Below, piece by piece: positions 12,045 through 64,000 of a stretch of 64,000 nucleotides of DNA. The notes below the pieces were generated by a model, which saw nothing but the letters and a program-made list of their open reading frames with translations, was not told the origin of the DNA and did not search any database. A program made the position numbers and the translations under genes. Origin of the DNA: an uncultured bacterium (GTDB lineage: Bacteria > Bacteroidota > Ignavibacteria > Kapaibacteriales > UBA4661); NCBI GenBank assembly GCA_937899715.1, contig CALCNX010000075.1, positions 9,269 through 73,268 of the forward strand. The letters run 5' to 3'. Each line of letters starts with the position of its first letter. The first letter of the stretch is position 1.

Positions 12045-13223
12045 ATGCTCACAATAAAAAAAGTCAGCACAGAAGAAACAATGCAGATTGCTGAGAGTGC
12101 AGAATCGAAAAAACGGCGCTTACTGCTTGTGGATGATGAGCCCGGCATTTTACGCCTATTAACCGGTCTTTTTTCTCCCTTCTACCTTGTGCGCACTGCT
12201 GGCTCCGGCTACGAAGCGATGAAAGTCCTGCAAGAAGGCTTTTCGCCGCAGGTCATTATCGCCGACCAGCGTATGCCCGGCATGACAGGCGCACAACTCC
12301 TTGCCGAGAGCCGAAAGATTGTGCCGGATGCTGTGCGCGTTACACTTACGGGCTATACAGATGTGAAGGAAATTATTGACAGTGTGAACAATGGCGCTAT
12401 CTATCGTTTTGTCGGCAAGCCGTGGGAAGACCCTGAGATTGTGGAGACGATTCGTTTGTGTTTTGAGCAATATGACCTTAGCACGAAAAATGTTGAATTG
12501 GAAGCCGCATTGAATCAGGTGCAGCGACTCAATGAAGAGAAAAATGAGATAATGGGAATTGTCTCGCACGACCTCAAAAATCCGATTAGCGCAATTCTGG
12601 GCATGACGGAATTGATGTTGCCCAATAAGGGATTTAATTTGGCGATAAGTGATTATCAGCAATTTTCGCAGATGATACAGCAAACGGCAGCCAATATGCT
12701 GGAACTTGTTAAAGGGCTTCTGGACGACCACTGGCTTGAATTTGGTGCGATGGAACTCTATGCAACTGAGATTGATGCAAGCGTGCTGGCGAAGTTTGTG
12801 GTGGACGATTATCGGCAGCGTGCTCGCGATAAAAATATCACTCTCCACTGCGACGCGCCTGAGAACGTGCTTGTTCTTGCCGACGAGCGCCGCTTACATC
12901 AAGTTCTTGATAATCTCATTTCCAATGCCGTCAAATACTCGCCGACAGGGAAAAATATTGTTGTCCGTACCGCCAATGTTCAGAATACTACGCGCATCAG
13001 CGTTCAGGACGAAGGACCCGGACTGAGTGACGACGACAAATCCAAACTTTTCGGCAAATTTGCTCGTCTTTCGGCGCAGCCTACGGGTGGGGAGCACAGT
13101 AGTGGTCTGGGTTTGAGTATTGTCAAGAAAATGGTGGAAGCGATGCAGGGGCGTGTGTGGTGCGAATCGGAGTTTGGCAAAGGCTCAACGTTTATTGTTG
13201 AACTTCCGGCTCCGCTACGGTAA
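12045..13223 (+). CDS. Hybrid protein with an N-terminal receiver (REC) domain fused directly to the shared transmitter module (REC, short coiled coil, HisKA, HATPase_c). It has no sensor domain and no TM helix.
   Basis: REC motifs LLLVDDEPGILRL, the acceptor Asp in IIADQRMPGMTG, and the Lys in GKPW. These are followed by NEEKNEIMGIVSHDLKNPI and the C-terminus [52 protein letters not shown]. Confidence 0.85.
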   Translation: MLTIKKVSTEETMQIAESAESKKRRLLLVDDEPGILRLLTGLFSPFYLVRTAGSGYEAMKVLQEGFSPQVIIADQRMPGMTGAQLLAESRKIVPDAVRVTLTGYTDVKEIIDSVNNGAIYRFVGKPWEDPEIVETIRLCFEQYDLSTKNVELEAALNQVQRLNEEKNEIMGIVSHDLKNPISAILGMTELMLPNKGFNLAISDYQQFSQMIQQTAANMLELVKGLLDDHWLEFGAMELYATEIDASVLAKFVVDDYRQRARDKNITLHCDAPENVLVLADERRLHQVLDNLISNAVKYSPTGKNIVVRTANVQNTTRISVQDEGPGLSDDDKSKLFGKFARLSAQPTGGEHSSGLGLSIVKKMVEAMQGRVWCESEFGKGSTFIVELPAPLR

Positions 13224-16200: not shown

Positions 16201-16618
16201 AGAATTAACGTCAACCTTTAGCTTATTTCGGATGCAATTCCATACTGTTGAAATTGTCGTTGCTCCCGACACACCGCCTAGCATCTTCATCCGAGCGAAT
16301 TTTGGCGAAATCAATCAAGTCTTTCTGAATCTGCTGGTGAATGCCGCCCAAGCCGGTGCAACACGAATCACGATGACCGCCACACAAGCTGACTCGATGA
16401 TTGTTTTACGGATGACCGACAACGGCAAAGGAATTTCGGCAAAGACAGTAAGCCACATCTTCGAGCCATTCTTTACGACCAAAGCTGCGGGCAATAGTGG
16501 TTTGGGGCTAAGTATATCCAAACAAATTATTGAGCGGCACGGTGGTGAGATAGAATGCGAGTCAGAGCTTGGTAAAGGCACAACTTTTATTGTTCGACTT
16601 CCGATGGTCACTGTATGA
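13223..16618 (+). CDS. Sensor histidine kinase that combines propeller repeats and a Y_Y_Y sensor with the second kinase-core type (HEINNPNA HisKA, GNSGLGLSIS ATPase). Its start codon overlaps the stop of the upstream gene (taATG); an alternative start lies near 13274.
   Basis: Propeller repeats (MWFGTADGLNSYDG, LWVGTKDYLCRF), a Y_Y_Y motif (FEFAALDFTAPHLNQYSWKLEGFEPEWGDSTTKHETKYTNLSPGDYVFRVRACNSDGVWNE), a TM helix (WWFRLLSAAALIAAVALIV) and the H-box VQSERMNAIGMLTAGVMHEINNPNA. The C-terminus is homologous to 55..996. Confidence 0.85.
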   Translation: MQRSTRHIFFYWFRCGVMLLCFVWGALAQNAEERTFRRLSHVEGLSNDEVYCMTQDRRGMMWFGTADGLNSYDGIKFTLYRHREGDTTSLPQNGILSLAEDASGNLWVGTKDYLCRFHPVRGTFTWYRLPTHYPLENVRNIVDIGGDYLYLAVGYGALRFDKRTGESKALFDQNDFPKELVYVVTDVFSDTSSRIWITSSRGIFVHDPRSETLRHVVRRIINRAMPRKDGEGKIWFSDSTGIHVFDPYRERIVKTFPSASFPHNSGVSKYNYAFLLTQSHDGAIWFTMGLSLFTLNPSTGTISIHTPALRRALGSAEIICAVTDRTGVVWLGDNVRGLGLWSPYNPKFKLWRHDPTNANTISNDYIRGIWEDSTDNVWVCTQYGGLNRINRHTGIVQHYRHTPGNPQSLMSDELWGITPLNSHEILLHKSVQTQVLNTQRGTFRGTRLHPTLAMLRDRDGTLWMADSIKGEFFNGTITTDGRRFLPALPLGFENARLDAAIEDRRGRIWFAHYRTRILRYDKQRQVWDTVRGLSKLQRADYFSSMTEDAAGNMLIATKGDGIYVCDTNDRVWSISEKDGLPNNNVYGIFHDKRGALWMSSDRGVIRYDPATKHFRQFTPNDGLQGWEFNRMAFHQNKKGEIYFGGTDGLNLFHPDSVRDNPLAPPVVLTALKIFDKPWEDIRERDIRVSALNAGNLHGTERNDTVLADMHILRLPYNYNTLTFEFAALDFTAPHLNQYSWKLEGFEPEWGDSTTKHETKYTNLSPGDYVFRVRACNSDGVWNEAGFALTIIIEPAWYQTWWFRLLSAAALIAAVALIVRWRVRAVEVRNRLLEVEVHKRTKELREANSEIKRQLDVQDAQAREIELANSELDITLQDLKTTQTQLVQSERMNAIGMLTAGVMHEINNPNAIAYSAITQTRTKLEEMMKYFLSLLDDESKESDEVRKYQELSNDALSRLELAADGAGRVKTIVANLQGMTKHQEEGGKVGNLVAELTSTFSLFRMQFHTVEIVVAPDTPPSIFIRANFGEINQVFLNLLVNAAQAGATRITMTATQADSMIVLRMTDNGKGISAKTVSHIFEPFFTTKAAGNSGLGLSISKQIIERHGGEIECESELGKGTTFIVRLPMVTV

Positions 16619-16744
16619 TGATTATAGGCAGGTGGATACAATCATTTTCGACTTGCCCGTCGTGCGGAATAGTATCGGCAATATTCAGGGTTGTATGGAC
16701 TCAGGAATTATTGTAAAAAATTTTTGCTACTAGATTTTTCCACA

Positions 16745-17413
16745 ATGACTACTCAACCGACAATAAAAGCACTCATAGCTGATGACCATGAAATAGCGCG
16801 GTTTGCGTTTCTCAAGTGGTTAGAGGAAGAGGCACAGACTGGGGTGCTTGATGTTAGCATCATTGGTATTGTGTCCACAGGACAACAGGCATTAGACCGT
16901 GTTTTGCTGTCGTCCAATCATGGTGAAGCCATTACTTTCTTGATACTCGACCTTGATATGCCGGATATGACTGGTCTGGAAGTCATCAAAACGCTTCGCG
17001 CAAAGGCATGGAAGCATCCGATATTGGTCATTTCCGGTTCGTATCTGGCAACAGCACGGGATGTGCTTGCGGTCGGAGCAAATGGGTTTATCTCCAAAGA
17101 AGAGGGGCAATCGGTGTTCGTTGAAGCGGTGCATTTTTTGGCGAGCAATCCCGATAGAACATGGCTCAGTCCCAAAACGCACCGCCAACTTCTTCACACT
17201 GAAAATCTTCTCAAAAAAGCTGACCTGACAACCGCTGAACAAGGTGTACTCAGGCTTGCCAAGTTCTCGAACAAAGAAATCGCCGATAAACTTGGTATTG
17301 CCGAAAGTACCGTCAAAAAGCATTTTTGGAGTATCTTCCAAAAGCTCGGTATTGCCTCGCGCTATGATGCGATTGCCTTTGCGATTGAAGCGGGCTTGAT
17401 TGTTGGGCGGTAG
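16745..17413 (+). CDS. Response regulator of the NarL/FixJ (LuxR-type helix-turn-helix) family with an unusual insertion of about 35 aa in the receiver domain.
   Basis: REC motifs (KALIADDHEIARFA and the acceptor D in LILDLDMPDMTG) and a C-terminal LuxR helix-turn-helix (LTTAEQGVLRLAKFSNKEIADKLGIAESTVKKHFWSIFQKLGI). Confidence 0.85.
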   Translation: MTTQPTIKALIADDHEIARFAFLKWLEEEAQTGVLDVSIIGIVSTGQQALDRVLLSSNHGEAITFLILDLDMPDMTGLEVIKTLRAKAWKHPILVISGSYLATARDVLAVGANGFISKEEGQSVFVEAVHFLASNPDRTWLSPKTHRQLLHTENLLKKADLTTAEQGVLRLAKFSNKEIADKLGIAESTVKKHFWSIFQKLGIASRYDAIAFAIEAGLIVGR

Positions 17414-26946: not shown

Positions 26947-29295
26947 TTGGACTCTAAAGTTGTAGCCCGAATTTATACGATAAAATTTATGGTGAATCCA
27001 AATGTATCAACATATAACCGAAGCATCGCGTTCTCGTCCGGATGCTTTTGTTTCTGCGTCCAAAAGTACTCGCTTCGTCACGCAGTTCTATTCATGCTCT
27101 TCGCAATAGCAAGTGGCATCCCAACAGTGGTCTGTTCTCAAGATGTTAAAAAGACATTCAACGAAAAGCAATCGACGACGGCAGTTGTTCGGGTGGATAG
27201 CACATTGCTGATTTATCGCTCAATGCCGGAAAAGCCACCATTTGCCTTTACGCGATTGCGTGGTTATGCTCTTTGGGATAAATCGTGGGAATTTCATCCT
27301 GCGGATTCCTCTCTGCTTCCGCCACCGCCCCAGAGTCCTAAGTGGGTACGCTTGAGGTCGTCAGCACTCTTTCCTTTGGATAACGACCAGCCTGCGTTTT
27401 GGAATGGTGCTGGGTGGTTTCGGCTTCGCTTGCAGTATCTCCCCGATGGAAAAGAGCTTCTTGCGCGTCAATTCACGCTTGCTTTTCAGATTGTCGGCGC
27501 GATGGACTGCTATCTGGACGGTTCACCGCTTACGTCTATCGGAACGCCACGAAGCATCGGAGCCGTGGAGCAGCTTGCTCCTTTCGGATATTATCACGTT
27601 CAGTTCTACAATCTCACATTGAAACCGAGCACGACGCATGAATTTTTGTGCTATTACACGTTCTCGCCTGTGCAATATCAGCGCAGTCTGGGGGGCTTTC
27701 GGACATCTCCGCAACTCGGCATGAGCATAGCACTGACAACACCCGAAGAGGCAGAGAAGCACAATCAATCTGCGGCGCTCTTTTGGTTTTTCTTTCAAAG
27801 TATTATCGGCTCCGTTGTCAGCATTGGTATTATTCATTTTCTCTTGTACATGGGCAGAGAACATCAGCCCGTCAACCTTATCATAGCCCTTTTCACGCTC
27901 TTTGTTACTGTTCAATCGCTCAGTTTTTACTTTCTCAACTACGCGCTCGGTCAGCCCTTATGGGTGATTTTTGCCGCTAATACGGTACTAGTCGTGGCGG
28001 CTCCGTTGTCCTTGCTTCTCGTTGTCATTTTGCTCAAGGAAATCTTCGGGCGGTACATTCACATTTCGGTAGTATTTGCCTCTATTCTCAGCGTTACAGC
28101 AACGGTTCTCTCATTTATACGCACACCACCGGGCAGTCAATTTCTTTTGATTGTCAATCTGGCGACTGCTATTTGTGTATTGATGCTGGTCGGCTATGTG
28201 TTGTTGAAGGTTGTTCAAATGTACCTGTTGCGTGTTCCCGACAAGGGACTCATGGCGTGGAGTGTTGTGTTGTTTACGATGTCATTTATGAATGAGGTTG
28301 TCTTTAGCTTTAGGAATGAGTTTCATTTTCGTCGCCCCTTTTGGAGTGCCGCGCTGATGTTAGGTTTGTATCTGCCTATCCCCTTCGCTCTGAGTGTAAC
28401 CGTTACGAAGCGCTTGCTTTCGTTGCGCGATAAGCTCAAGAAAAGTAATCTTGAACTGGAGGAGCGAGTGCAAGAGCGGACGGCAGAGCTTACTACGGCA
28501 AACGAAGAAATTGAGCGGCAGCTAGAGATATTGAATGAGCAATCGAAGGAAATCGAAATTGCGAATGCTCAGCTTCAAGAACGAAATTTGGAATTGGAAG
28601 AATTTGATAACGAAAAAAATGAGTTTTTGGGTATTGCCGCGCACGACCTGAAAAATCCACTCGCTGCTATTCGTATGGCGGTGGATTTGATGTTGCGTTA
28701 CCGCAACAGAATGACCATAGAAGAGCAAGAAGAGCGTTTGCATATCATTATGACTGTCTCGGAGCGTATGACGCTCATCATATCCAATCTTTTGGAAATC
28801 AATGCTCTTGAGCGTGGCGGCATCACACTTTCACCCACCCGACTGGATATGGTGGCAATAGCGCGAACCGCCGTGCAGGGCTATGAAGAACGTGCTCAAG
28901 CAAAGGGAATTACACTGCACTTCGAGACCAATGTACTGGTGGGCTTGGTGTATGCTGACGACCACGCGCTCGTACAAGTACTAGACAATCTCATTTCTAA
29001 TGCCGTCAAATACTCGCCTTTGGGAAAACGGGTTGTGGTGCGCATCCGTGCTGGTGCTGAAACGATAAAGGTAGAAATTCAGGACGAGGGTGAAGGCATC
29101 TCTCCTGACGATATGACAAAGCTCTTCGGGAAATTTGCACGCTTATCGGCGCGTCCCACAGGCGGCGAACATTCGACGGGTCTGGGCTTGAGCATCGTCA
29201 AAAAAATGGTGGAAGCCATGCGCGGGCGTGTCTGGTGCGAGTCGGAGCTTGGGCGTGGAGCGAAATTTATTGTTGAGTTACCCCAAAATGTGTAA
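26947..29295 (+). CDS. Sensor histidine kinase of the 7TMR-DISM type (extracellular 7TMR-DISMED2-like domain plus 7 TM helices) with the shared transmitter module. The true start is probably downstream, near 27097 (MLFAIASGIPTVV...).
   Basis: An extracellular domain of about 200 aa, then seven hydrophobic helices (ALFWFFFQSIIGSVVSIGIIHFLLY ... LGLYLPIPFALSVTV), the coiled coil, the H-box EFLGIAAHDLKNPL and the C-terminus ...[25 protein letters not shown]. Confidence 0.8.
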   Translation: MDSKVVARIYTIKFMVNPNVSTYNRSIAFSSGCFCFCVQKYSLRHAVLFMLFAIASGIPTVVCSQDVKKTFNEKQSTTAVVRVDSTLLIYRSMPEKPPFAFTRLRGYALWDKSWEFHPADSSLLPPPPQSPKWVRLRSSALFPLDNDQPAFWNGAGWFRLRLQYLPDGKELLARQFTLAFQIVGAMDCYLDGSPLTSIGTPRSIGAVEQLAPFGYYHVQFYNLTLKPSTTHEFLCYYTFSPVQYQRSLGGFRTSPQLGMSIALTTPEEAEKHNQSAALFWFFFQSIIGSVVSIGIIHFLLYMGREHQPVNLIIALFTLFVTVQSLSFYFLNYALGQPLWVIFAANTVLVVAAPLSLLLVVILLKEIFGRYIHISVVFASILSVTATVLSFIRTPPGSQFLLIVNLATAICVLMLVGYVLLKVVQMYLLRVPDKGLMAWSVVLFTMSFMNEVVFSFRNEFHFRRPFWSAALMLGLYLPIPFALSVTVTKRLLSLRDKLKKSNLELEERVQERTAELTTANEEIERQLEILNEQSKEIEIANAQLQERNLELEEFDNEKNEFLGIAAHDLKNPLAAIRMAVDLMLRYRNRMTIEEQEERLHIIMTVSERMTLIISNLLEINALERGGITLSPTRLDMVAIARTAVQGYEERAQAKGITLHFETNVLVGLVYADDHALVQVLDNLISNAVKYSPLGKRVVVRIRAGAETIKVEIQDEGEGISPDDMTKLFGKFARLSARPTGGEHSTGLGLSIVKKMVEAMRGRVWCESELGRGAKFIVELPQNV

Positions 29296-29432: not shown

Positions 29433-32339
29433 ATGAAATCGTTCTCACTTTCTACAAAAGTAGCAGCGCTCTACGTTATTGTCGGTAGCCTTTGGATTAT
29501 TATTTCCGACGTGCTTCTTAACTATATATTGCATCTCGGCTTGGTTGCTGGTGTACCACAGACGCTGAAAGGGATTGTGTTTATTGCTGTTACCGGAGCA
29601 TTACTTTTTCTGATAATACGCCAAATGGATGCTTCTCGTAGCAGGGTTGAGCAAGAGGCAGAAATGCTCGCATCGGCTGCCAAAGGTAGTCTTGATATTA
29701 TTGCTCTCCACGACCACGATGGAAAAATTTTATTCATCACGCCATCGGTTGCTAATACTCTCGGTTACGAGCCATCCGATTTTATCAATAAACATCCGAG
29801 CATTCTTCATCATCCCGATGACATTGAACGCACACGTACCGCAATCAGGGGTGTGAAAGAAGGTAATGAGCAACAATTTACATATCGTGCCAAGCATAAA
29901 AATGGACACTACATTTGGCTGGAAAGTAAGCTCAAACCAATTCTTGACCCTGCAACCCAGAAGGTCGTTCGATTTGAGGCATTTACCCGCGATGTCTCAG
30001 AGCGTGAGCAAGCATATAGAGCGTTACAACAGAGTGAGGCGCAAGCTCGAAACATCATCGACGCATCGCCTGTACCATCTGCCCTAAATGACAAGAATCA
30101 GCGAATTATATATCTGAATCCAGCCTTTATTGCAATGTTCGGTTACACACTGGACGACATTCCAACCTTGGCAGAATGGTGGGTAAAAGCCTACCCCGAC
30201 GAGGTGTATCGGCAGTGGGTGCAAGAAACATGGCAGCTACATCTGGAAAAAGCACAGCGCGAAGGAACAACCTTTGAGCCGATGGAGCTGAGTATTTGCC
30301 GTAAAGATGGCGGAAAGCGCACTGCGCTTGTGAGCGCGGCTCCGCTCGGGGACGAATTTCAAGACGTTCATCTTGTGATTTTGTACGATATTACCGAGCG
30401 AAAAGCCATGGAAAGGGCGTTGCAGGAAAGCGAGGAGCGATACCGTAATCTGTTCAATGTGATGGAAGAAGGGATTGCTATCAACGAAGCAGTATTCGAT
30501 GAGAATGGTGATGTGGTAGATTACATCATCGTTGATGCCAATCCTGCTTTTGAGCGTCATTCGCCTTATACCATAGCAGAAGCACTTGGTCAAAGGGCAA
30601 CGAGTCTCTATAAGATGGAGTCAAAATTTATACGTGATTGGTGGCGGCAGCATATTACCTTGGCAAGTGTTCCCCGCACAGAGTATTATCACGAGCCGAG
30701 CGACCGATGGTTTGATATTGTAACCACCTTACCCGAAAACGGGCGCTTTGCTACTATTTTTATCAATATCACCGACCGTAAGCGTGCCGAAGAGCAATCA
30801 AGAATGCTCGCGTTGGTGGCAAGTAAAACAAGCAATGCTGTCATTATTACTGATGCTACCGGATACACAACATGGGTAAATAACGGTTTTGTCAATGTTT
30901 CCGGTTTTGCGTCCGAAGAAATCATCGGAAAGAAACCCGGCGACCTATTGCAAGGAAAACGTACCGACTCTGAAACTGTCCGGCAGATGAGCCGTGCTAT
31001 CAGTGCCGGCGAATCTTTTGAAGTCGAAGTGGTGAATTATTCTAAAGACGGTACTCCGTATTGGATACATATCAAAGCAGACCCATTCTTTGATGAATCC
31101 GGGATACTTCAGGGGTTTATTGCTATTGAGCAAGATATTACCCACGAAAAGGAGCAGACCGAAGCGCTTATGCAGAGCTATGTAGAAACGCAAAATTTCC
31201 GCACAGCGCTGGAAACAAGCGCCTTGGTGTCAATAACAGATATTCGCGGTACAATTATCTACGCAAACAAGGCTTTTGCGGCGGTGTCGAAATATACCGT
31301 TGAAGAACTTCTGGGAAAAAATCATAGACTAATCAATTCCGGATTCCATACTCAAGAATTCTTTCGTGAGATGTGGATAACTATTTCTTCCGGCGAACCA
31401 TGGCGTGGCGAAGTCCGCAATCAAGCAAAAGACGGTTCGTACTACTGGGTGGAAACTGCCATTAGTCCTATGCTTGACCAGCACGGACAAATTTATCAGT
31501 ATGTATCGGTGCGGTATGAAATCACCGAGCGGAAACGGATTGAAGAAGAGTTACAAACGTGGTCGCAAGAACTGGAGAAGCGAGTAGAGGAGCGGACTCA
31601 TGAACTGCAAGAATTGAACCATGAGAAAGATGAGATTCTTGGTATTGCGGCGCATGACCTCAAGAATCCGCTTGCCGGTATTCTTTCAGGCGCGGAAATC
31701 TTGGAGCGCTACTACTCCGACGATGACAAAATAAAGTATTTTGCGACCATGATTATTAGTGCTAGTGACCAGATGCTAGGTATTATCAAAAATCTGCTCG
31801 AAATCAATGTCTTAGAAAACGGGAAGTTCGTCATGAATCTTACCCCGATAAGCCTAGAAGTGGTTGTGCCGATAATAGAAGATTATGAGCAACGAGCTAA
31901 AACCAAAGATATTCATGTCCTCTACGAGCCTCCGCCGGGCACGCTCGCTCCCGTTATCATGGCAGATGAACAAGTACTTTGGCGAATAGTGGACAATATT
32001 ATTTCCAACGCACTGAAGTATTCTCCGCACGGAAAAAATATCTACGTCCGCGTTCTAAGTCGTACCGATGAAAATGGCGTAGAATATGGTCGTATGGAGG
32101 TACAAGACGAAGGATCGGGCATCAGCGCTGAAGACAAGAAAAAACTGTTTGGTAAGTTTGCGCGGTTGTCGGCAATACCGACGGGTGGGGAGAGTTCCAC
32201 GGGGCTGGGACTGAGCATTGTGAAAAAGCTGACTGAAGGCATGAACGGAAAGGTATGGTGCGAGTCAGAATTAGGGCAAGGCGCAACATTTATTGTGGAG
32301 TTCCCGATTGCGCACGATGAAAGCTGTTTAGACTCATAA
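29433..32339 (+). CDS. Multi-PAS sensor histidine kinase (two N-terminal TM helices, about four PAS/PAC domains and the shared transmitter module).
   Basis: TM helices (VAALYVIVGSLWIIISDVLL; IVFIAVTGALLFLII) and PAS/PAC signatures (DGKILFITPSVANTLGYEPSDFINKHPSILHHPDD; NKAFAAVSKYTVEELLGKNHRLINSGFH...DGSYYWVETAISP). The H-box is EILGIAAHDLKNPL and the C-terminus is GKFARLSAIPTGGESSTGLGLSIVKKLTEGMNGKVWCESELGQGATFIVEFP. Confidence 0.85.
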   Translation: MKSFSLSTKVAALYVIVGSLWIIISDVLLNYILHLGLVAGVPQTLKGIVFIAVTGALLFLIIRQMDASRSRVEQEAEMLASAAKGSLDIIALHDHDGKILFITPSVANTLGYEPSDFINKHPSILHHPDDIERTRTAIRGVKEGNEQQFTYRAKHKNGHYIWLESKLKPILDPATQKVVRFEAFTRDVSEREQAYRALQQSEAQARNIIDASPVPSALNDKNQRIIYLNPAFIAMFGYTLDDIPTLAEWWVKAYPDEVYRQWVQETWQLHLEKAQREGTTFEPMELSICRKDGGKRTALVSAAPLGDEFQDVHLVILYDITERKAMERALQESEERYRNLFNVMEEGIAINEAVFDENGDVVDYIIVDANPAFERHSPYTIAEALGQRATSLYKMESKFIRDWWRQHITLASVPRTEYYHEPSDRWFDIVTTLPENGRFATIFINITDRKRAEEQSRMLALVASKTSNAVIITDATGYTTWVNNGFVNVSGFASEEIIGKKPGDLLQGKRTDSETVRQMSRAISAGESFEVEVVNYSKDGTPYWIHIKADPFFDESGILQGFIAIEQDITHEKEQTEALMQSYVETQNFRTALETSALVSITDIRGTIIYANKAFAAVSKYTVEELLGKNHRLINSGFHTQEFFREMWITISSGEPWRGEVRNQAKDGSYYWVETAISPMLDQHGQIYQYVSVRYEITERKRIEEELQTWSQELEKRVEERTHELQELNHEKDEILGIAAHDLKNPLAGILSGAEILERYYSDDDKIKYFATMIISASDQMLGIIKNLLEINVLENGKFVMNLTPISLEVVVPIIEDYEQRAKTKDIHVLYEPPPGTLAPVIMADEQVLWRIVDNIISNALKYSPHGKNIYVRVLSRTDENGVEYGRMEVQDEGSGISAEDKKKLFGKFARLSAIPTGGESSTGLGLSIVKKLTEGMNGKVWCESELGQGATFIVEFPIAHDESCLDS

Positions 32340-32483
32340 GAAAGTGTCTAAAAATACGCCTTAAAACCCTCACCCAACCCTCTCCCAGAGGTAGAGGGCT
32401 TCAGAATACGGCTTTGTTTCTTGCTCCTTCTCCCTCTGGGAGAAGGTTGGGATGAGGGGATACACAATTTTCAGACACTTTCT
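32340..32483. repeat. Extended imperfect palindrome of about 145 bp lying immediately after the stop codon of the upstream multi-PAS kinase gene. It is a terminator-like or MITE-like element of a different family from 4455..4777.
   Basis: Outer arms gaaagtgtctaaaaat (32340-32355) and aattttcagacactttc (32467-32483). Inner arms ccctcacccaaccctctcccagagg (32368-32392) and cctctgggagaaggttgggatgagggg (32432-32458). Confidence 0.75.
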
Positions 32484-32608
32484 AAAAGCCTGACGGTTCG
32501 TTCTAGGGGATTTGCTCGGTTTCGTTACTCACGCGATGTACTCACGATTTGTTCACGCTCACTGCTTGAATTCAAGCTGTCATTGAGCCTCATTCACCGA
32601 TAAAGCAG

Positions 32609-33412
32609 ATGAAAACAAATGCTATGCTACGCAATAATGTGTCCACCGAAGGGCATGGGGACAAGACCTTGCTCTTTGTGCATGGATACGGTTGCGACCA
32701 AAATATGTGGCGTTTTATCACGCCAGCGTTCCGAGATTCGTATCGAATTGTTCTCATGGATCACGTTGGTTCCGGCAAGTCCGATGTGAGCGCCTATTCT
32801 GTTGAAAAATACAGCTCGCTTCAGGGTTACGCCGATGACATTATAGAAATTTGCACCGAACTTTCTTTGCAGAACGTAACGATTGTCGGGCATTCGGTCA
32901 GTTCAATGATTGCGATGCTGGCTGCAACGCAGTCCCCGTCTTTGTTTGAAGCGGTCATCATGGTTTGCCCCTCGCCACGCTATATGAATGATGGCGACTA
33001 CATCGGTGGATTTGCTCCCTGTGCTATTGACGAACTCTTGGAATCATTGGACAGCAATTATTTAGGGTGGTCAAGTTCTATCGCGCCGGTAATTATGGGC
33101 AATGCCGATAAGCCCGAACTGGCGGAAGAGCTAAGGGAGAGTTTTTGCCGGAATAATCCCACGATTGCAAAGCATTTTGCGCAGGTAACATTTTTGGGCG
33201 ACAACCGAAGCGATCTCGCCAAGCTGACCGCACCGACACTTATCCTGCAATGCTCATCCGATATGATTGCGCCGCTTCAGGTCGGGAGGTATGTTCATCA
33301 TCATATTGCGGGCAGTACGCTTACCATACTCCAAGCCACGGGGCACTGTCCGCATCTGAGCGCTCCCAGCGAAACCATTGCCGCCATGAAGAAGTTTCTG
33401 GCGGAGCATTGA
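32609..33412 (+). CDS. RsbQ-like alpha/beta-hydrolase of the RsbQ / KAI2 / D14 family of small-molecule-binding hydrolases.
   Basis: The translation (LLFVHGYGCDQNMWRFITPAF...VLMDHVGSGKSD...YSSLQGYADDI...VTIVGHSVSSMIAML...CPSPRYMN...YLGW...ATGHCPHL) aligns along its length with Bacillus subtilis RsbQ as recalled from memory (ILFAHGFGCDQNMWRFMLPEL...IVFDYVGSGQSD...VSIIGHSVSSIIAGI...ICPSPCFMN). The Ser-Asp-His catalytic triad is present. Confidence 0.85.
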   Translation: MKTNAMLRNNVSTEGHGDKTLLFVHGYGCDQNMWRFITPAFRDSYRIVLMDHVGSGKSDVSAYSVEKYSSLQGYADDIIEICTELSLQNVTIVGHSVSSMIAMLAATQSPSLFEAVIMVCPSPRYMNDGDYIGGFAPCAIDELLESLDSNYLGWSSSIAPVIMGNADKPELAEELRESFCRNNPTIAKHFAQVTFLGDNRSDLAKLTAPTLILQCSSDMIAPLQVGRYVHHHIAGSTLTILQATGHCPHLSAPSETIAAMKKFLAEH

Positions 33413-33419
33413 TGCTGCT

Positions 33420-33914
33420 ATGCAAGAGATAGAACGCTATATCAACGAAAGTGCGGAGGAGTTGTACAACAACTCTTACTGCGGTTATTTCACGGCATTG
33501 CCCGACGGAATTATCGTGAAGATAAATGATACGCTCTTGCAATGGCTTCAGCAAGAACGTGCCGAAGTGCTTGGAAGTGTGCGGTGGCAAGACTTTTTGA
33601 CAATGGGTGGAAAGATATATTACGAAACGCATTTTGCTCCCACGCTGCAACTGTATGGTGTAGTCAGAGAAGTCGCTATGGAAATAGTCAGCAAAGCAGG
33701 TGTAAAAATGCCGGTGCTGATAAACGCAACGCAGGTAAAAGACAGCGAAGGGAACGTGCTTCTTACCCGCTCGGTGGTGATAGATATGACCGAAAGAAAA
33801 CAGTATGAACGGGAGCTTCTTCTTGCTAAAAAGTATGCTGAAGATTTGAGTGAACGGCTCGCCGAAGCAAACAGGCAAGTGAATGAATTAATTAATACAG
33901 ATGGCAGTGCATGA
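33420..33914 (+). CDS. PAS-domain protein. It is most likely the N-terminal part of a PAS histidine kinase that a +1 frameshift near 33890-33912 has cut from its transmitter (next feature).
   Basis: PAS-like sequence (YCGYFTALPDGIIVKINDTLLQWLQQERAEVLGSVRWQDFL...) followed by a coiled coil. It starts 8 nt after the hydrolase stop codon. The ORF ends with ...VNELINTDGSA* while the next ORF, in the other frame, begins MAVHDLKNPL, exactly at the H-box. Confidence 0.6.
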   Translation: MQEIERYINESAEELYNNSYCGYFTALPDGIIVKINDTLLQWLQQERAEVLGSVRWQDFLTMGGKIYYETHFAPTLQLYGVVREVAMEIVSKAGVKMPVLINATQVKDSEGNVLLTRSVVIDMTERKQYERELLLAKKYAEDLSERLAEANRQVNELINTDGSA

Positions 33915-34560
33915 CCTCAAAAACCCGCTTCATGGTCTTCGCATGGCGCACGAAATGCTTCAAGCTATGAATGAGAATTCTTCTCCGGCAGACCGCTTGG
34001 GGTTGTTGAATGGGAACATAGCGGCAATAGACCGTATGACTGCGTTGATAACTAATCTTTTGCAGTTGAACGAACTTGAGCAAGGCGCAATACACACGCA
34101 TCCTGAAGTGCTGGAGGTGCGGCATTTACTGGAAGGCTTTGTACGAGATTACCGCTTGCGTGCCGAAGCAAAACATATTATGCTGATGACAGGTAGTAAT
34201 GCCGATACCGTGATGTGGAGTCTTGACAGCGAACTTTTTGAGCAGGTGATGGACAATTTGCTCTCGAATGCAATTAAGTATTCGCCGCTTGGAGGAGTTG
34301 TGTTGGTGCGCTTGGTATCCGATAGCAGCAGGCTGCGCATCGAAATTCAAGACGAGGGCGTGGGCGTTTCACCCGAAGATATGAAAAAGCTCTTTGGCAA
34401 ATTTGTCCGCCTTTCTGCTCGCCCCACAGGCGGCGAACATTCGACAGGTCTTGGATTAAGCATTGTCAAGAAAATGGTAGAAGCCATGCGAGGGCGTGTC
34501 TGGTGCGAGTCGGAACTAGGACGCGGTGCAAAATTTATTGTTGAGTTACCACCATTATAG
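33901..34560 (+). CDS. Shared transmitter module (HisKA + HATPase_c) that begins exactly at the H-box. It is probably the frameshifted C-terminal part of the PAS kinase above (pseudogene or sequencing error).
   Basis: Begins MAVHDLKNPLHGL and carries the C-terminus [52 protein letters not shown]. It has no DHp helix-1 residues upstream of the His and no sensor domain. There is an in-frame stop (taa at 33889-33891) just upstream. Confidence 0.6.
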   Translation: MAVHDLKNPLHGLRMAHEMLQAMNENSSPADRLGLLNGNIAAIDRMTALITNLLQLNELEQGAIHTHPEVLEVRHLLEGFVRDYRLRAEAKHIMLMTGSNADTVMWSLDSELFEQVMDNLLSNAIKYSPLGGVVLVRLVSDSSRLRIEIQDEGVGVSPEDMKKLFGKFVRLSARPTGGEHSTGLGLSIVKKMVEAMRGRVWCESELGRGAKFIVELPPL

Positions 34561-34834
34561 TCTATACTTGTACAAGGATGATAACTGCATAGTTTCGGTA
34601 ATCGTGGCACACTCGGCAGCTATTTTTTCACGAGATTTATTTCGGAGTGTACTTTTATAGCAAAACAATCGTTTTTTAAAGAGGTTCTCACCATATTGGA
34701 ACAAAAGTTGGAACAAGAGCGCTATCCAAGACAAACGTGCTGTATTCTTTGTGTTGATGCCACTATAAAAATTTGTCCGCAAACACTGCTTGTATAGTCA
34801 ATATCTGCGGACTTTATGTTGTTTTCTACGGCGA

Positions 34835-37072
34835 TTACCGCTTTAGCACTCGTGCAATGCGGTGTTGTCCGTTTGCATGGATAACTTCAATTCGATAAAT
34901 GCCTGCTGTATATTGGCTCATATCTATCTGCGTACTGAGTTTGCCGCCTTGCAGTGACTCGTGGGAACTCCACAGACGTTTGCCCAAAATATCACTGAGA
35001 ATCACTTCTGCGGTGCTCTCGCTCTCAAGAAGCGTTTCTAACGTTATGCTATTTGTTGCTGGGTTCGGGTAAACGGTAAGACTTTCTTCAGATGGCGTAG
35101 CGGATTTCTTCAATAACGACTGCTCATCTCTGTTGTTTGGAGCTTTTGCTGTAAATGTTGATAGAAAGGTAAAACCGCTTATCTTCCGCGTTCCTGTCCG
35201 GGTCGATACTGCCACGTCTCCCGAAGCCCCTTTCCCAACAATAGCAGTAATGGTGCCAAATGAACGAGGTTCAGAAGCTGTAGGATCAACCACAAATGAA
35301 AAGGATGCTGCCTCCTTTCCGCCAAAACTAACACTCGTCGGTCCGCCGAAAAAATCACCTATAATCTTCACTGTATCACCACGTCCAGCAAAGAATTTAC
35401 TTATAGAATGAATATAGGGCGTTAACATCGTAATTTTTGCAGCAGGAGTACGGAAACTACAATCATTATCCACAATTAACTCGCCAGAGATACCATTAGT
35501 AACAACGGCTTTAATAAGGGAATCGGAGATAATTTGGAATGAAGGCATGGGAATAAGTAATGAGCTAGCACTAGGAGAATTAGGAGAAAAAACAATTTCG
35601 GAAGATATTCTACTCACACCTAATAATTCCGTGCCCTTAATGAATAACGTATCACCCAAATTGACATCGGTTGGAGTAAGGCGAGTAATAATCGGCAATG
35701 GTGGACAGACCGAAATGCAAGTCGCGGGAGGGCACGTAATACCGAACGAGCCACCGGCAGTGCATACCGTACCGACTATTGTTGTTATGCAAACTGCTCC
35801 CTGAAATCTGCCTCGTCTATCAGCAGCAGAAACAACAATAACTTTGATGAGCGAATCGGAAATATTGAGGATTTGTTGCTGTGGAATTCCTGCGAGAGAA
35901 ACGGTGGTGGTATTGCTCAGTTGTTGTCCGTGAATACTCAACGTATCGCCATGTCGGACGGACGGAGAAAAATCCGTGAGAATTGGTAATAATAGCGGTG
36001 GTGAAATAAATAGAAACCCAGATTTCGCTGCTGTTCCGCAGGTGGTTGCTACAAAAATATCACCCGAACCACCTGCGCCCACAACTGCTTTGATAAGTGT
36101 TGAGGAGACGGGAATAACTGCTGTTGCTGGAAAAGTGGCGCTCCCAAACATAACAGTCGTTGCTCCATTGGGAAACGTCCCCGAAATGTTGACAGTGTCG
36201 CCTGTTCTGGCGGATGTGGGAGAAAAACTCGTAATCGTCGGTGGAAAACTAAACGTAAACCCAGACTTCGTTGCTGTTCCATTTACAGTAGATACTTGAA
36301 CATTCCCCGAAGCACCAGCACCAACGACTGCTCTGACAAGTGTTGAGGAGACGGGAATAATTGCTGTTGCCGGAACGCCTCCGAAGAGAACATAGGCTGG
36401 ATTAGTGAGAAACGTCCCTGAAATGCTGACGGTATCGCCTGTGTTGGCGCACGTTGGAGAAAAACTCGTAATCGTTGGTGCAGGAATAAAAGTAAAGCCG
36501 CACCGTGAGGCTGTACCAAGCGCAGAAAGCAGCGCCACATTACCCGAAGCACCCGCACCGACAACCGCTTTGAGGGGTGACCCTAAAATAAAAGACGCAG
36601 CCGGAACCCCGCCAAATGTAACGCCCGTTATGAGCGGAGTACCTGTTGCTTGAATGGTAACGGTATCCCCTGTTTTAGCAGAACTCGGCGAAAAGCTTTC
36701 AATGGTCGGAAGTAAACTTGATCCCGGTGTGGAGAAAAAGCTAAAACCGCACTGTGTTGCTGTTCCGCCGGGCGTTAATACCGACACATCGCCCGACGAA
36801 CCTGCACCAACAACCGCTTTGATGACAGTAGATGATATTTGTGTAAAGGATGTTGCATTGATTCCACCAAACTTGACAAAAAAAACAGACGTAAAATTCG
36901 TCCCCTGAATCGTCACAGTATCGCCTTGCCGTGCACTTTTCGGTGAAAAGCTGGTGATTTGTGGAGACTGTGATTGTGCAACCATCGTGGGGACTGTGAA
37001 TATATTGCAAAAAGCAGAAAGCAAAAACAGCAGTGGCAAACCGACGTTATTCGATAGGATAATACGTACCAT
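34835..37072 (-). CDS. Large secreted protein with nine or more tandem IPT/TIG-like Ig-fold repeats and a T9SS C-terminal sorting domain. The start is taken at the internal Met beginning the signal peptide MVRIILSNNVGLPLLFLL; the ORF is open to 37348.
   Basis: Repeats of about 80 aa (ITSFSPTSARTGDTVNISGTF...GGVPATAVIPVSSTLVRAVVGAGASGNVQV), and the C-terminus ...LTVYPNPATNSITLE...YTAGIYRIEVIHANGQHRIARVLKR, which matches the T9SS CTD (Por secretion tail) pattern. Confidence 0.8.
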   Translation of the reverse strand: MVRIILSNNVGLPLLFLLSAFCNIFTVPTMVAQSQSPQITSFSPKSARQGDTVTIQGTNFTSVFFVKFGGINATSFTQISSTVIKAVVGAGSSGDVSVLTPGGTATQCGFSFFSTPGSSLLPTIESFSPSSAKTGDTVTIQATGTPLITGVTFGGVPAASFILGSPLKAVVGAGASGNVALLSALGTASRCGFTFIPAPTITSFSPTCANTGDTVSISGTFLTNPAYVLFGGVPATAIIPVSSTLVRAVVGAGASGNVQVSTVNGTATKSGFTFSFPPTITSFSPTSARTGDTVNISGTFPNGATTVMFGSATFPATAVIPVSSTLIKAVVGAGGSGDIFVATTCGTAAKSGFLFISPPLLLPILTDFSPSVRHGDTLSIHGQQLSNTTTVSLAGIPQQQILNISDSLIKVIVVSAADRRGRFQGAVCITTIVGTVCTAGGSFGITCPPATCISVCPPLPIITRLTPTDVNLGDTLFIKGTELLGVSRISSEIVFSPNSPSASSLLIPMPSFQIISDSLIKAVVTNGISGELIVDNDCSFRTPAAKITMLTPYIHSISKFFAGRGDTVKIIGDFFGGPTSVSFGGKEAASFSFVVDPTASEPRSFGTITAIVGKGASGDVAVSTRTGTRKISGFTFLSTFTAKAPNNRDEQSLLKKSATPSEESLTVYPNPATNSITLETLLESESTAEVILSDILGKRLWSSHESLQGGKLSTQIDMSQYTAGIYRIEVIHANGQHRIARVLKR

Positions 37073-37148
37073 GGAGGTAAAGAATGAATTGTAGGAAAAC
37101 ACTATTAAGTGCTGCAAAGATAGGCGGGCTGGTCTTATAAAGCTATTC

Positions 37149-37184
37149 GTACATCTACGGATTTGGCAAAAACCGTAGATGTAC
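37149..37184. repeat. Perfect 12-bp-stem hairpin (gtacatctacgg / ccgtagatgtac) with a 12-nt loop, in the divergent intergenic region between the TIG-repeat gene and the MCP gene.
   Basis: Read directly from the sequence: gtacatctacgg atttggcaaaaa ccgtagatgtac. Confidence 0.7.
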
Positions 37185-37320
37185 TGATAGCAAAAGTTAG
37201 GGCGGGGGATGATAGTAGCATTAAGGCAGAAACAACAGTGAAAGCTATGAAGGGCAGGGTTTGGTGCGAAAGTGAAGAGGGCAAAGGGGCAACGTTTATT
37301 GTGGAATTGTGCAGGTATAG
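37163..37320 (+). pseudogene. Remnant of the last ~25 codons (...[22 protein letters not shown]) of the shared transmitter module, with no upstream kinase.
   Basis: 37241-37310 translates to [24 protein letters not shown], matching the conserved kinase C-terminus. Upstream of it the translation degenerates ([11 protein letters not shown] compared with SIVKKMVEAM). Confidence 0.55.
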
Positions 37321-37567
37321 TCTCACTGTTTGCCAACGCAACCCCCAAAGCGGCATCGTTTTTCTGTGTCGTTTGGTGGAAGTTTTTTGTACATTCGTGA
37401 CGGAAGAAAAAATGCCATCGCTTCTATTTCACTACATTGGGGAGCCGACGTTATTCGTTGCTTCATGGTATTGTATGCGGAGCGTTCATGCACTGTTCGT
37501 GCGTATATTGTCCAAAACACACCACAAACGATTTTTGCCACTTTTGCCCATCTATTTGGAACACACT

Positions 37568-62669: not shown

Positions 62670-63533
62670 TTAACGCCGTAGATTCAGGACTGCTTGGAGA
62701 CGCGATTTGTATGTGCGGGTAAATTTGAGTTTTGTTCCATCGTTGAGAACAACCACACCGTCGCTGTGCGTGGAGTGTTGAAGTTCTTGAATGGCATTGA
62801 CGTTGACAATAATGGAGCGGTGAATACGCAGGAATATTGCAGGGTCAAGTCGCGTTTCCAATATGTGCATCCGTTCCCGCAGGAGATAGGTTTTTTGCTT
62901 CGTATGGATTTCAGCGTAATAAGTATCCGCTTCTATCCAATCAATGTCCTGCGTTTTTACGACGACAGCCCGCCCACGTGAATTGAGCGTGATATGCTCC
63001 CAATATTCGTTCTCGCCGTGCGTGTCATTGTTCTCGTTCTCTGCGGTTTGCTGGGTGTAAAGAGGATGTTCGTTGAGAAATTCCAAGAGTCGAGTGGTCA
63101 GATTGTCCATTTTCTGCTGTCGGCGCATTTTTTTTGCGCGTTCTACGGTCTGAAAAAAGCGCTCCTCGTCAACGGGTTTCAAAAGATAATCCACAGCGCT
63201 GGAGTCAAATGCTTTGAGAGCATAACGGTCAAATGCGGTGATGAACACCACGACGGGAATCTGTGACGGCTCAAGCGTTTGAAGTACATCAAAGCCGTTC
63301 ATTTTCGGCATTTGAATATCCAAAAAAACAATATCCGTTGCGGTTGCGTGCAGAAATTCAACCGCCTCAAAGCCGTTAGCACATTCACTAACCGAGGCGA
63401 TTTCGCTGTCACCTTGCAGCATCATGCGGATATTTTGACGTGCCAAATCCTCGTCGTCCACGAGGAGAACATTGTAACGGTTTGGTGTGGCGACAGCCTC
63501 TGCTACGCGCGAAAGAATTGTGGTTGAATCCAT
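62670..63533 (-). CDS. Response regulator of the LytTR family (REC + LytTR DNA-binding domain).
   Basis: REC motifs (YNVLLVDDEDLARQNI and the acceptor D in VFLDIQMPKMNGFD) and the LytTR domain (VVKTQDIDWIEADTYYAEIHTKQKTYLLRERMHILETRLDPAIFLRIHRSIIVNVNAI). Confidence 0.85.
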   Translation of the reverse strand: MDSTTILSRVAEAVATPNRYNVLLVDDEDLARQNIRMMLQGDSEIASVSECANGFEAVEFLHATATDIVFLDIQMPKMNGFDVLQTLEPSQIPVVVFITAFDRYALKAFDSSAVDYLLKPVDEERFFQTVERAKKMRRQQKMDNLTTRLLEFLNEHPLYTQQTAENENNDTHGENEYWEHITLNSRGRAVVVKTQDIDWIEADTYYAEIHTKQKTYLLRERMHILETRLDPAIFLRIHRSIIVNVNAIQELQHSTHSDGVVVLNDGTKLKFTRTYKSRLQAVLNLRR

Positions 63534-63565
63534 TGTCAAAAAAATTTTGAGTGTTCGCAAAGGAG

Positions 63566-64000
63566 TTATGCCGCAAGTTCGAGCGGCAAGCACAGCCGAG
63601 CAGATACGCCGCCATCGGGGCGATTCGTTAATTCAAGCGAAGCCTTATCGCCGTAAATATGCTGCAAACGTGACAGAACATTATTCAAACCAATGCCTGC
63701 CGAATGAGTGATATTCCAGTTCGGCGGCAATCCAACGCCATTGTCCGCAATTTCAATGCAGAGAAACGATGATTCGTCGTGCCGGGAGTGACGGGAAGCC
63801 GTAATATGAATAATCCCAACTGAGCCTATATAGTTCGCCAGTCCGTGCTTGACGGCATTTTCAACAAGAGGTTGCAGAATAAGATTGGGTAACTGTGCTT
63901 CCAATACATCTGGGGCAACGGTAAGTTTGTGAATAAGTTTATTTTGGAAACGAATTTCTTCAATGGAAATATAGCGGCGAATAAAGCTCAGTTCTTGCTC
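63566..64000 (-). CDS. Sensor histidine kinase of the LytS/YehU type (His_kinase + HATPase_c). Only the C-terminal part is in the window; the gene continues beyond the window end.
   Basis: LPNLILQPLVENAVKHGL...IEIADNGVGLPPNW...GIGLNNVLSRLQHIYG is the ATPase domain typical of LytS-family kinases. The gene lies directly upstream of the LytTR regulator on the same strand. Confidence 0.7.
   Translation of the reverse strand, partial: EQELSFIRRYISIEEIRFQNKLIHKLTVAPDVLEAQLPNLILQPLVENAVKHGLANYIGSVGIIHITASRHSRHDESSFLCIEIADNGVGLPPNWNITHSAGIGLNNVLSRLQHIYGDKASLELTNRPDGGVSARLCLPLELAA

Follow-up and report, generated by a model that had tools for sequence, protein, structure and literature searches.

The hydrolase-kinase locus in the 64-kb stretch of Ignavibacteria DNA analysed here (the window) probably represents a published RsbQ-PAS module with a histidine-kinase output, most likely inactivated recently in this lineage. 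An RsbQ-type hydrolase gene is followed by a PAS-kinase gene, which is split by a genuine, heritable 4-bp duplication of TTAA. Nadezhdin, Brody & Price defined the RsbQ-PAS module in 2011 (PLoS One, PMC3183031), with outputs that comprise a phosphatase, a histidine kinase, and a diguanylate cyclase. Because the pairing of RsbQ with a kinase-output PAS protein has thus been in the literature since then, it is no new inference, and the window locus adds little to it.

An initial sequence-only reading of the window had placed three ORFs on the + strand, and all three were found where it had put them (Table 1). It had also located the PAS start codon 8 nt past the hydrolase stop; there are 7 intervening bases, so that the ATG begins at the eighth base. 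Relative to the PAS ORF, the kinase ORF is shifted to the +1 frame, and the two overlap by 14 nt. A promoter and terminator scan of positions 32200–34900 gave nothing above shuffled expectation.

Table 1. Features of the hydrolase-PAS-kinase locus in window coordinates.
Feature	Position	Strand	Description
RsbQ-like alpha/beta hydrolase ORF	32609–33412	+	267 aa; Pfam Abhydrolase_1 E 1.9e-20, Abhydrolase_6 E 9.7e-19
PAS and helical linker ORF	33420–33914	+	164 aa; Pfam PAS_9 E 2.9e-11
TTAA-TTAA 4-bp tandem duplication	33888–33895	+	reading frame shifted +1 at the linker/DHp junction
Kinase-core ORF	33901–34560	+	219 aa; Pfam HisKA E 1.2e-09, HATPase_c E 4.2e-28
2.7-kb insertion between the kinase ORF and its 3' relic	34564–37237		
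Relic of the kinase gene's original 3' end	37238–37324	+	sister-genome alignment

The best solved relative of the hydrolase was B. subtilis RsbQ (1wom), with an E-value of 2.4e-84 and 118 of 266 residues identical (44%), followed by KAI2/D14/HTL structures (E-60 to E-43). The first unrelated hydrolase came only at 7.9e-17, so that more than 25 orders of magnitude in E separate the KAI2/D14 group from every other hydrolase. Judged by its sequence, the protein is a member of the RsbQ/KAI2/D14 clade and not an ordinary esterase; a grouping with ordinary esterases, which had been proposed as a check, did not emerge. The Ser-Asp-His triad noted at the outset is indeed intact: S96, D218, and H246 align with RsbQ S96, D219, and H247 and do not vary across 23 aligned hydrolase homologues. 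Equally invariant among the 23 are V97, F135, and F195, corresponding to the cavity and gate residues V97, F136, and F196 of RsbQ; in place of the cavity residue F27 the window protein has Y27, which close relatives conserve almost without exception. The dN/dS ratio against sister genomes is 0.05–0.07. Neither the window hydrolase nor the 164-aa PAS protein had an exact match in sequence look-ups, and their relatives were reached via cluster members.

The hydrolase might instead be an ordinary esterase that lies beside a PAS gene by chance. Public gene calls, which start the protein at 32624 (262 aa), name it just 'alpha/beta hydrolase', and NCBIfam, with no RsbQ-specific model, yields only generic matches below cutoff. 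Against this naming stand both the RsbQ-clade scores and the conservation of the gene pair. A tblastn survey of RsbQ-like loci in GTDB genomes, drawn from diverse phyla, detected the same type of PAS domain directly downstream of the hydrolase in 76 of 80 cases, either on the same strand and starting 2–333 nt past the hydrolase stop or in frame as part of a single ORF. Because 76 of the 80 related loci share it, the adjacency is far beyond chance. Three of them (L010, L024, and L074) are natural hydrolase-PAS-kinase fusions, which favours a functional link between hydrolase and PAS domain. Chance adjacency of an ordinary esterase, which we regard as having a negligible probability, is ruled out by the clade scores and the synteny.

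The outputs of the 76 PAS partners are varied, as the sequence-only reading had suggested should be looked for: HATPase_c was found in 61, HisKA in 49, a receiver domain in 25, and SpoIIE (PP2C) in 14. The other outcome that it had named, an absence of conserved PAS synteny in relatives, did not materialize. In a separate sample of 95 representatives with an N-terminal PAS domain, 44 carried HATPase_c, 28 SpoIIE, and one GGDEF; among the sampled relatives, a kinase output is the most frequent architecture. The module occurs very widely, with at least 8000 RsbQ-like proteins at E <= 1e-20 and about 65% identity across phyla. As a word-indexed search for PAS relatives gave two proteins only, an exhaustive HMMER search was used, which collected about 3800 clusters at E <= 1e-10.

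The PAS domain occupies approximately residues 15–125 of the 164-aa ORF and leads into a long helical linker at about 124–160. Its comparison with B. subtilis RsbP used an N-terminal RsbP sequence with which retrieved fragments agree: P0143 equals residues 1–52 exactly, P0141 equals residues 65–129 exactly, and P0140, 94% identical to that sequence overall, bridges the middle. Each of the ten residue numbers given in PMC3183031 fits it as well. The two PAS domains are 31% identical. The signature of the RsbP-PAS class comprises C10, L13, L48, Q53, F55, C56, Y59, P62, E72, and P86 (PMC3183031); the window PAS has C21, F24, L60, K65, Y67, Y68, H71, P74, E84, and P98 at these positions and fits the class consensus at 10 of 10. 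The domain is therefore, by alignment, a member of the RsbP-PAS class, and it is the most N-terminal one in the partner protein. RsbP F55 is needed for RsbQ binding (PMC3183031), and Y67 occupies the equivalent position in the window PAS. The window's other PAS domains show no resemblance to the RsbQ-adjacent one by tblastn.

In the window and in its orthologues, the PAS domain ends in a DIT-like sequence, D122-M-T124 ('DMT'), followed by ERK. Other family members, Bacteroidota among them, have 'DIT' (L007) or NIT/NIS (L037, L022, and L032). The sample described in 2011 places the RsbP-PAS class without a DIT motif at the PAS end (PMC3183031); this criterion fails across the larger family because DIT-like motifs occur in the window, its orthologues, and other members. 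A PDB search with the window PAS retrieved weak LOV2 matches only (E about 0.002) and no RsbP-PAS structure by sequence. Modelled by AlphaFold from its single sequence, the 164-aa ORF had a mean pLDDT of 53 with a poor PAS core and a helix at 124–160 of pLDDT 82–94; the model was used for this C-terminal helix only.

Alignment of the DNA with L082 and L083 revealed a 4-base insertion in the window at the linker/DHp junction, and the PAS ORF ends prematurely six codons past the duplication (NT DGSA stop). With 4 nt removed, the gene would span 1137 nt, that is, 378 codons and a stop, the same length as the intact orthologues. Such 378-aa PAS-kinase orthologues are present in sister Ignavibacteria (L088–L092; at 4813–5949 in L088), and L082 and L083 read through the junction; a single TTAA was seen in L082, L088, L091, and L092. 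The covalent link from PAS to output is thus broken in the window genome and intact in L088–L092. The apparent frameshift between PAS and kinase noticed originally is real, because the kinase is read in the +1 frame and its HisKA match starts only at position 9 of the 66 in the profile. Both the PAS and the kinase fragments are still open, and four of the five duplication carriers, the window among them, have an intact hydrolase.

A 4-base difference in an AT-rich stretch of a single window could in principle be a sequencing or assembly error that hides an intact gene. The same TTAATTAA junction, which is not a homopolymer, recurs however across five contigs that were assembled independently, with different samples and pipelines behind them, namely the window and L084–L087 (NCBI GCA_044227435.1, ENA ERZ650283, ENA ERZ27248705, and Logan SRR8208348). 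An artefact is very improbable and effectively ruled out by this identity. Programmed +1 ribosomal frameshifting, by which PAS and kinase would be rejoined, appears just as improbable. The shift needed is indeed +1, and the stretch in which it would have to occur (33892–33911) is short and AT-rich. The junction carries no known +1 slippery motif, however, and a shift at the terminal GCA-TGA would miss the phospho-His. Moreover, the two-frame state is derived, because close relatives encode the same protein in one frame with a single TTAA. Programmed frameshifting was set aside on the grounds of the missing motif and this derived state.

The kinase ORF retains the H-box and the HATPase_c N, G1, F, and G2 boxes (HDLKNPL, NAIKYSP, DEGVGV, FGKF, and GLGLSIV). 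It starts at an ancestral internal methionine and is orthologous to residues 160–378 of the intact 378-aa proteins, in which kinase-family profiles begin at residues 149–155, 5–11 residues upstream of Met160. The phospho-acceptor histidine is residue 4 (MAVHDLKNPL), so that the 219-aa kinase core lacks a complete DHp helix 1 ahead of the phospho-His. At the other end, the alignment with sister genomes skips from 34563 to 37238, and the relic beyond this insertion is identical to the orthologous 3' end at 63 of 87 positions, as against 46 of 87 for the current kinase 3' end. The window holds about 19 histidine-kinase genes by Pfam. The sharing of the kinase module across the island, proposed beforehand, is borne out by tblastn with the 219-aa query, which found 17 paralogous cores in the window at 37–54% identity, essentially full length, and two partial matches, one of 103 residues at 16316–16603 and a 24-residue relic at 37238–37309.

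On the window branch, synonymous and non-synonymous codon changes number 15:12 in the PAS part and 8:5 in the kinase part, matching a dN/dS of about 0.2 as observed between intact genomes. The carriers differ by at most three substitutions in the PAS ORF and at most four in the hydrolase, with dS about 0.01, and their kinase ORFs are nearly identical except for a mosaic block in L086. The TTAA lesion is recent, since no decay is detectable yet; for the same want of a decay signal in the PAS and kinase parts, loss of function is not demonstrable from sequence. In L084, a 1-nt deletion in the hydrolase removes the Asp and the His, possibly as a second lesion.

The split gene might still be functional, a reading that we consider unlikely. 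Both the 164-aa and the 219-aa polypeptides would be made, the latter by termination-reinitiation at the ATG at 33901, and they would either reassemble through the linker or leave a constitutive kinase, with RsbQ and PAS acting on another target. Coupled translation of two polypeptides is conceivable because of the 14-nt overlap between the kinase ORF and the PAS stop, the kinase ATG lying 11 nt ahead of that stop. Both ORFs are free of accumulated damage, the duplication allele is fixed across five assemblies whose samples differ, and the window and three other carriers keep the hydrolase intact. The persistence of the allele proves little, however, given the near-identity of the carriers. 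The ATG has no Shine-Dalgarno-like sequence ahead of it, and the 219-aa product would begin three residues before the phospho-His without the N-terminal DHp helix 1. None of the other 75 complete PAS partner genes examined is split, and the hydrolase of one carrier is damaged as well. A still bolder extension, which we consider improbable, would regard the split allele as a three-piece sensor of hydrolase, PAS-helix, and kinase core, with coupled translation and reassembly through the linker helix, or the one versus two TTAA copies as a heritable on/off switch in the population.

We favour recent inactivation, and the intact form in the sister Ignavibacteria suggests what might have been lost. 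There, a catalytically competent RsbQ-type hydrolase with its Ser-Asp-His triad would be co-transcribed with a soluble 378-aa kinase across a gap of 7–8 nt and would dock onto the N-terminal PAS of that kinase. From the PAS the signal might then pass through the helical linker of about 35 residues to the DHp/CA kinase core. This order of signalling from hydrolase to PAS to kinase is modelled on B. subtilis RsbQ/RsbP genetics and two-hybrid data; evidence for a physical interaction between hydrolase and PAS comes from B. subtilis only. In the window lineage, the duplication lies exactly at the linker/DHp junction and splits the gene into a PAS-helix fragment of 164 aa and a kinase core of 219 aa without the start of DHp helix 1, so that the covalent path from sensor to kinase is cut. 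We infer that the window copy has lost its function, which would make the sensor an early-stage pseudogene. Since B. subtilis RsbQ hydrolyses butenolides with covalent modification of its catalytic His (bioRxiv 10.1101/2023.12.05.570042), a small-molecule input for the RsbQ-PAS-kinase locus seems plausible by analogy; butenolide binding or hydrolysis is known from that protein and the plant receptors only. Homology and synteny bear out the analogy from which the sequence-only reading had derived a hydrolase-dependent input into two-component signalling; the split window copy probably does not deliver such an input.

The literature searched contained no experimental test of hydrolase-PAS-kinase signalling in a kinase-output member. 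The soluble 378-aa sister orthologues could be compact candidates for testing in vitro whether the hydrolase gates kinase autophosphorylation, with and without butenolides; the window copy is a poor choice because it is split.

Compared with the RsbQ-PAS-kinase module as the 2011 paper presents it (PMC3183031), the locus shares an RsbQ homologue directly upstream on the same strand and a partner with an N-terminal RsbP-PAS class domain, a helical linker, and HisKA/HATPase_c. It differs in its Ignavibacteria host, a lineage apparently absent from the text of that paper, and in a window PAS with the DIT-like 'DMT' end and 'SYCG' where 'APCG' is usual. That paper also describes a PAS set apart from its kinase by a frameshift in Mesorhizobium sp. 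Q11AY1; unlike in that account, the frameshift here is traced to a TTAA duplication that is heritable, and the sister orthologues are intact. The analogy to B. subtilis RsbQ/RsbP drawn at the start holds for the gene order, the tight spacing, the hydrolase with its identical triad, and the PAS with its signature residues, and the proposed difference, a histidine-kinase output instead of the PP2C phosphatase, is confirmed by the HisKA/HATPase_c domains; the window copy is additionally split. A Pfam survey of the window saw no sigma-B partner-switching genes. With the plant butenolide receptors KAI2/D14, the hydrolase shares its clade and triad, but its downstream partner is a PAS domain encoded in cis rather than the F-box protein MAX2 with SMXL targets.

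The PAS ORF starts 7 nt after the hydrolase stop and overlaps the kinase ORF, which lies in the +1 frame relative to it, by 14 nt. The sequence-only reading had described this layout, including an apparent frameshift between the PAS domain and the kinase, accurately, as judged from ORF coordinates, frames and Pfam matches. The kinase ORF begins with MAVHDLKNPL, placing the phospho-acceptor His three residues after the start, and its match to the HisKA profile begins only at profile position 9.

Features of the module, its surroundings and the natural fusions (window positions unless a locus of another genome is named)
Feature	Position	Strand	Remarks
RsbQ-like alpha/beta hydrolase	32609-33412	+	267 aa; Pfam alpha/beta-hydrolase families
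PAS ORF	33420-33914	+	164 aa; PAS_9, E 2.9e-11
Kinase ORF	33901-34560	+	219 aa; HisKA, E 1.2e-09; HATPase_c, E 4.2e-28
4-bp tandem duplication	33888-33895		
Palindromic insertion, 143 nt	32340-32482		between stop of upstream multi-PAS kinase and hydrolase
2.7-kb insertion	34564-37237		carries TIG-repeat/Por_Secre_tail (T9SS) gene on minus strand
Displaced original kinase 3' end (relic)	37238-37324		
MCP ORF, 724 aa	37163-39337		over-extended across relic; orthologues 589 aa
Response regulator, LuxR-type	16691-17413		
Response regulator, LytTR-type	62670-63593	-	
Receiver-kinase	12045-13223		
Hydrolase + PAS + kinase, single ORF	L010 2491-4968		Proteobacteria MAG
Hydrolase + PAS + kinase, single ORF	L024 6001-8319		Gemmatimonadales MAG
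Hydrolase + PAS + kinase, single ORF	L074 2281-4782		Roseomonas chloroacetimidivorans

Two groups can be told apart among the hydrolase's close relatives, which share 94% identity with it and are cluster members annotated 'Ignavibacteria bacterium'. In the intact group (loci L088-L090, L091 [GCA_014654705.1] and L092), a single PAS-HisKA-HATPase_c ORF of 378 aa follows the hydrolase, and the reading frame is also continuous across the junction ('...NRQLNELIQMAVHDLKNPL') in the partial contigs L082 and L083. The junction reads GAA-TTAA-TTAA-TACAG in the window versus GAG/GAT-TTAA-TACAG in the intact group; the lesion is a tandem duplication, whose removal restores exactly 378 codons. Because the same junction is found in L084 (GCA_044227435.1), L085 (ERZ650283), L086 (ERZ27248705) and L087 (SRR8208348), the duplication is inherited, and assembly error is ruled out as the source of the frameshift. 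The PAS ORFs of these carriers differ by at most three substitutions and their hydrolases by at most four (dS ~0.01), and their kinase ORFs are nearly identical except for a mosaic block in L086; the lesion is thus recent. All 39 differences between the L086 and window kinases lie in a 310-nt block (kinase nt 153-462; L086 1633-1942), outside which the two are identical, a pattern of mosaic recombination and not of decay by point mutation.

The module in the window belongs to a known family and has probably been inactivated recently, this heritable duplication having severed the sensor from the kinase at their junction. A product that bears the His can only begin at the ancestral internal Met and would thus be missing 5-11 residues of DHp helix 1 that fall within the kinase-profile matches of the intact orthologue. 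No +1 recoding signal was recognisable at the window junction, and the 75 other complete partner genes examined are all unsplit. The main rival, that the split arrangement still functions, seems unlikely to us. Comparing the window lineage with intact genomes gives a dN/dS of 0.16-0.22 for the PAS; for the kinase core, dN/dS is 0.18-0.22 over its full length and 0.11-0.14 over its 5' 276 nt, the values between intact genomes for those gene parts being 0.17-0.20 and 0.09, respectively. For the hydrolase it is 0.05-0.07. Codon changes on the window branch (15 synonymous to 12 non-synonymous in the PAS, 8 to 5 in the kinase 5' part) match the expectation at dN/dS ~0.2, the neutral expectation being ~1 to 4. 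The hydrolase of the carrier L084 (5072-5866) has a further 1-nt deletion and two adjacent substitutions, leaving a 213-aa product without the catalytic Asp and His; this deletion, seen in a single MAG, would fit a locus beginning to decay.

Among all PDB sequences searched, the window hydrolase best matches B. subtilis RsbQ (1wom; E 2.4e-84; 118/266 aligned positions identical), followed by Olei00960 and ~55 KAI2, D14, HTL and DAD2 entries (E-60 to E-43), whereas the first unrelated hydrolase appears only at E-17. This ranking places the protein, by its sequence, in the RsbQ clade and not among ordinary esterases, as had been proposed. The catalytic triad is S96, D218 and H246. Of the RsbQ cavity residues listed in PMC3183031, V97, F135 and F195 do not vary across 23 aligned homologues, and Y27 replaces F27 of RsbQ. 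The family is very large (at least 8000 candidates at E <= 1e-20) and conserved to an unusual degree, with ~63-67% identity to the window hydrolase in Bacteroidota, Myxococcota, Planctomycetota and Proteobacteria. Many relatives carry the JGI label 'sigma-B regulation protein RsbQ', and NCBIfam holds no model specific to the family.

The PAS domain was aligned with what we take to be the N-terminal sequence of B. subtilis RsbP. Database fragments P0143 and P0141 match residues 1-52 and 65-129 of this reference exactly, P0140 (94% identical overall) spans the middle gap, and the ten residue numbers given in PMC3183031 all agree with it. Identity to the RsbP PAS is 31%, and the class consensus is satisfied at every signature position (RsbP/window: C10/C21, L13/F24, L48/L60, Q53/K65, F55/Y67, C56/Y68, Y59/H71, P62/P74, E72/E84, P86/P98), which places the domain in the RsbP-PAS class. 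It deviates in having SYCG where the class usually has APCG (PYCG in the sister loci) and in ending in a DIT-like DMT. The class was stated in 2011 to be without DIT (PMC3183031), but this does not generalise because other members of the aligned set carry DIT, NIT or NIS. The remaining PAS domains of the window are unlike that of the module.

Eighty loci encoding RsbQ-like proteins were sampled from GTDB representative genomes of Bacteroidota, Myxococcota, Acidobacteriota, Actinomycetota, Chloroflexota, Proteobacteria, Gemmatimonadota, Verrucomicrobiota and Planctomycetota. A relative of the window PAS adjoins the hydrolase in 76 (tblastn, E 2e-10 to 2e-44): in 73 it starts on the same strand, 2-333 nt past the hydrolase stop, and in three it lies in frame within the same ORF. 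The three natural fusions speak for a direct functional link. Pfam outputs among the 76 partners were HATPase_c (61), HisKA (49), Response_reg (25) and SpoIIE (14). An exhaustive HMMER search with the window PAS gave 3824 cluster representatives (E <= 1e-10); among 95 with an N-terminal PAS, HATPase_c occurred in 44, SpoIIE in 28 and GGDEF in one. In these samples the histidine kinase is the commonest output of the class, and the expected synteny with PAS genes of varied outputs holds in relatives. Neither of the outcomes that the sequence-only reading had named as refuting, a hydrolase grouping with ordinary esterases and missing PAS synteny in relatives, was observed. Four loci (L018, L028, L035, L039), all from Cytophagales (Pontibacter rugosus, Anditalea, Adhaeribacter aerolatus, A. 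soli), have no PAS relative in the fetched flank, and the short ORFs downstream of their hydrolases have no Pfam match. The PAS-HisKA relative in L001 (101-2025; Logan SRR27128186; PAS 44% identical) is cut short after the H-box, and a DDE_Tnp_1 transposase in opposite orientation follows; this relative is another disrupted family member.

The window holds ~19 histidine-kinase genes (within positions 1-59013), almost without exception on the + strand, with Reg_prop/Y_Y_Y, TPR, GAF, multi-PAS (4xPAS) and 7TMR-DISM sensors and paralogous cores (37-54% amino-acid identity; DNA identity of the 3' ends as high as 84%), but only two response regulators plus one receiver-kinase. No regulator adjoins the module in the window or the sister genomes, so its kinase is an orphan. 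The 143-nt palindrome, which folds as one extended hairpin (-75.4 kcal/mol, z -9.1), occurs once in the window. It is missing in the sister loci L088 and L091, whose flanking sequences meet directly (...GATAA|AAGCC), and resembles a MITE-type element inserted at a TA/TAA site. Compared with the sister genomes, the window lineage also has the 2.7-kb insertion, flanked by the duplicated kinase 3' end. The relic is identical to the orthologue at 63/87 positions versus 46/87 to the current kinase end, whose last ~60 nt match the paralogue at 26947-29295 (53/59) better than the orthologue (36/59); this indicates that recombination took place inside the conserved 3' end of the kinase.

The RsbQ-PAS class with kinase output is already in the literature, and our search found no experimental study of a kinase-output member. 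Nadezhdin, Brody and Price (PLoS One 2011; PMC3183031) described 45 adjoining RsbQ/RsbP-PAS pairs, in which PAS and coiled-coil were joined to one of three outputs (PPM phosphatase, histidine kinase in Gram-negatives, diguanylate cyclase), and proposed that the module feeds a common input to diverse outputs. They reported that RsbQ binds the RsbP PAS domain, that F55A abolishes binding, and, once, a frameshift between PAS and kinase (Mesorhizobium Q11AY1). RsbQ hydrolyses butenolides, its catalytic His becoming covalently modified, and exogenous butenolides inhibit its signalling (bioRxiv 10.1101/2023.12.05.570042). The hydrolase and PAS kinase of the sequence-only reading are real and correctly identified, although the class was already published and the window copy is cut; the analogy to RsbQ-RsbP is borne out, backed by conserved synteny.
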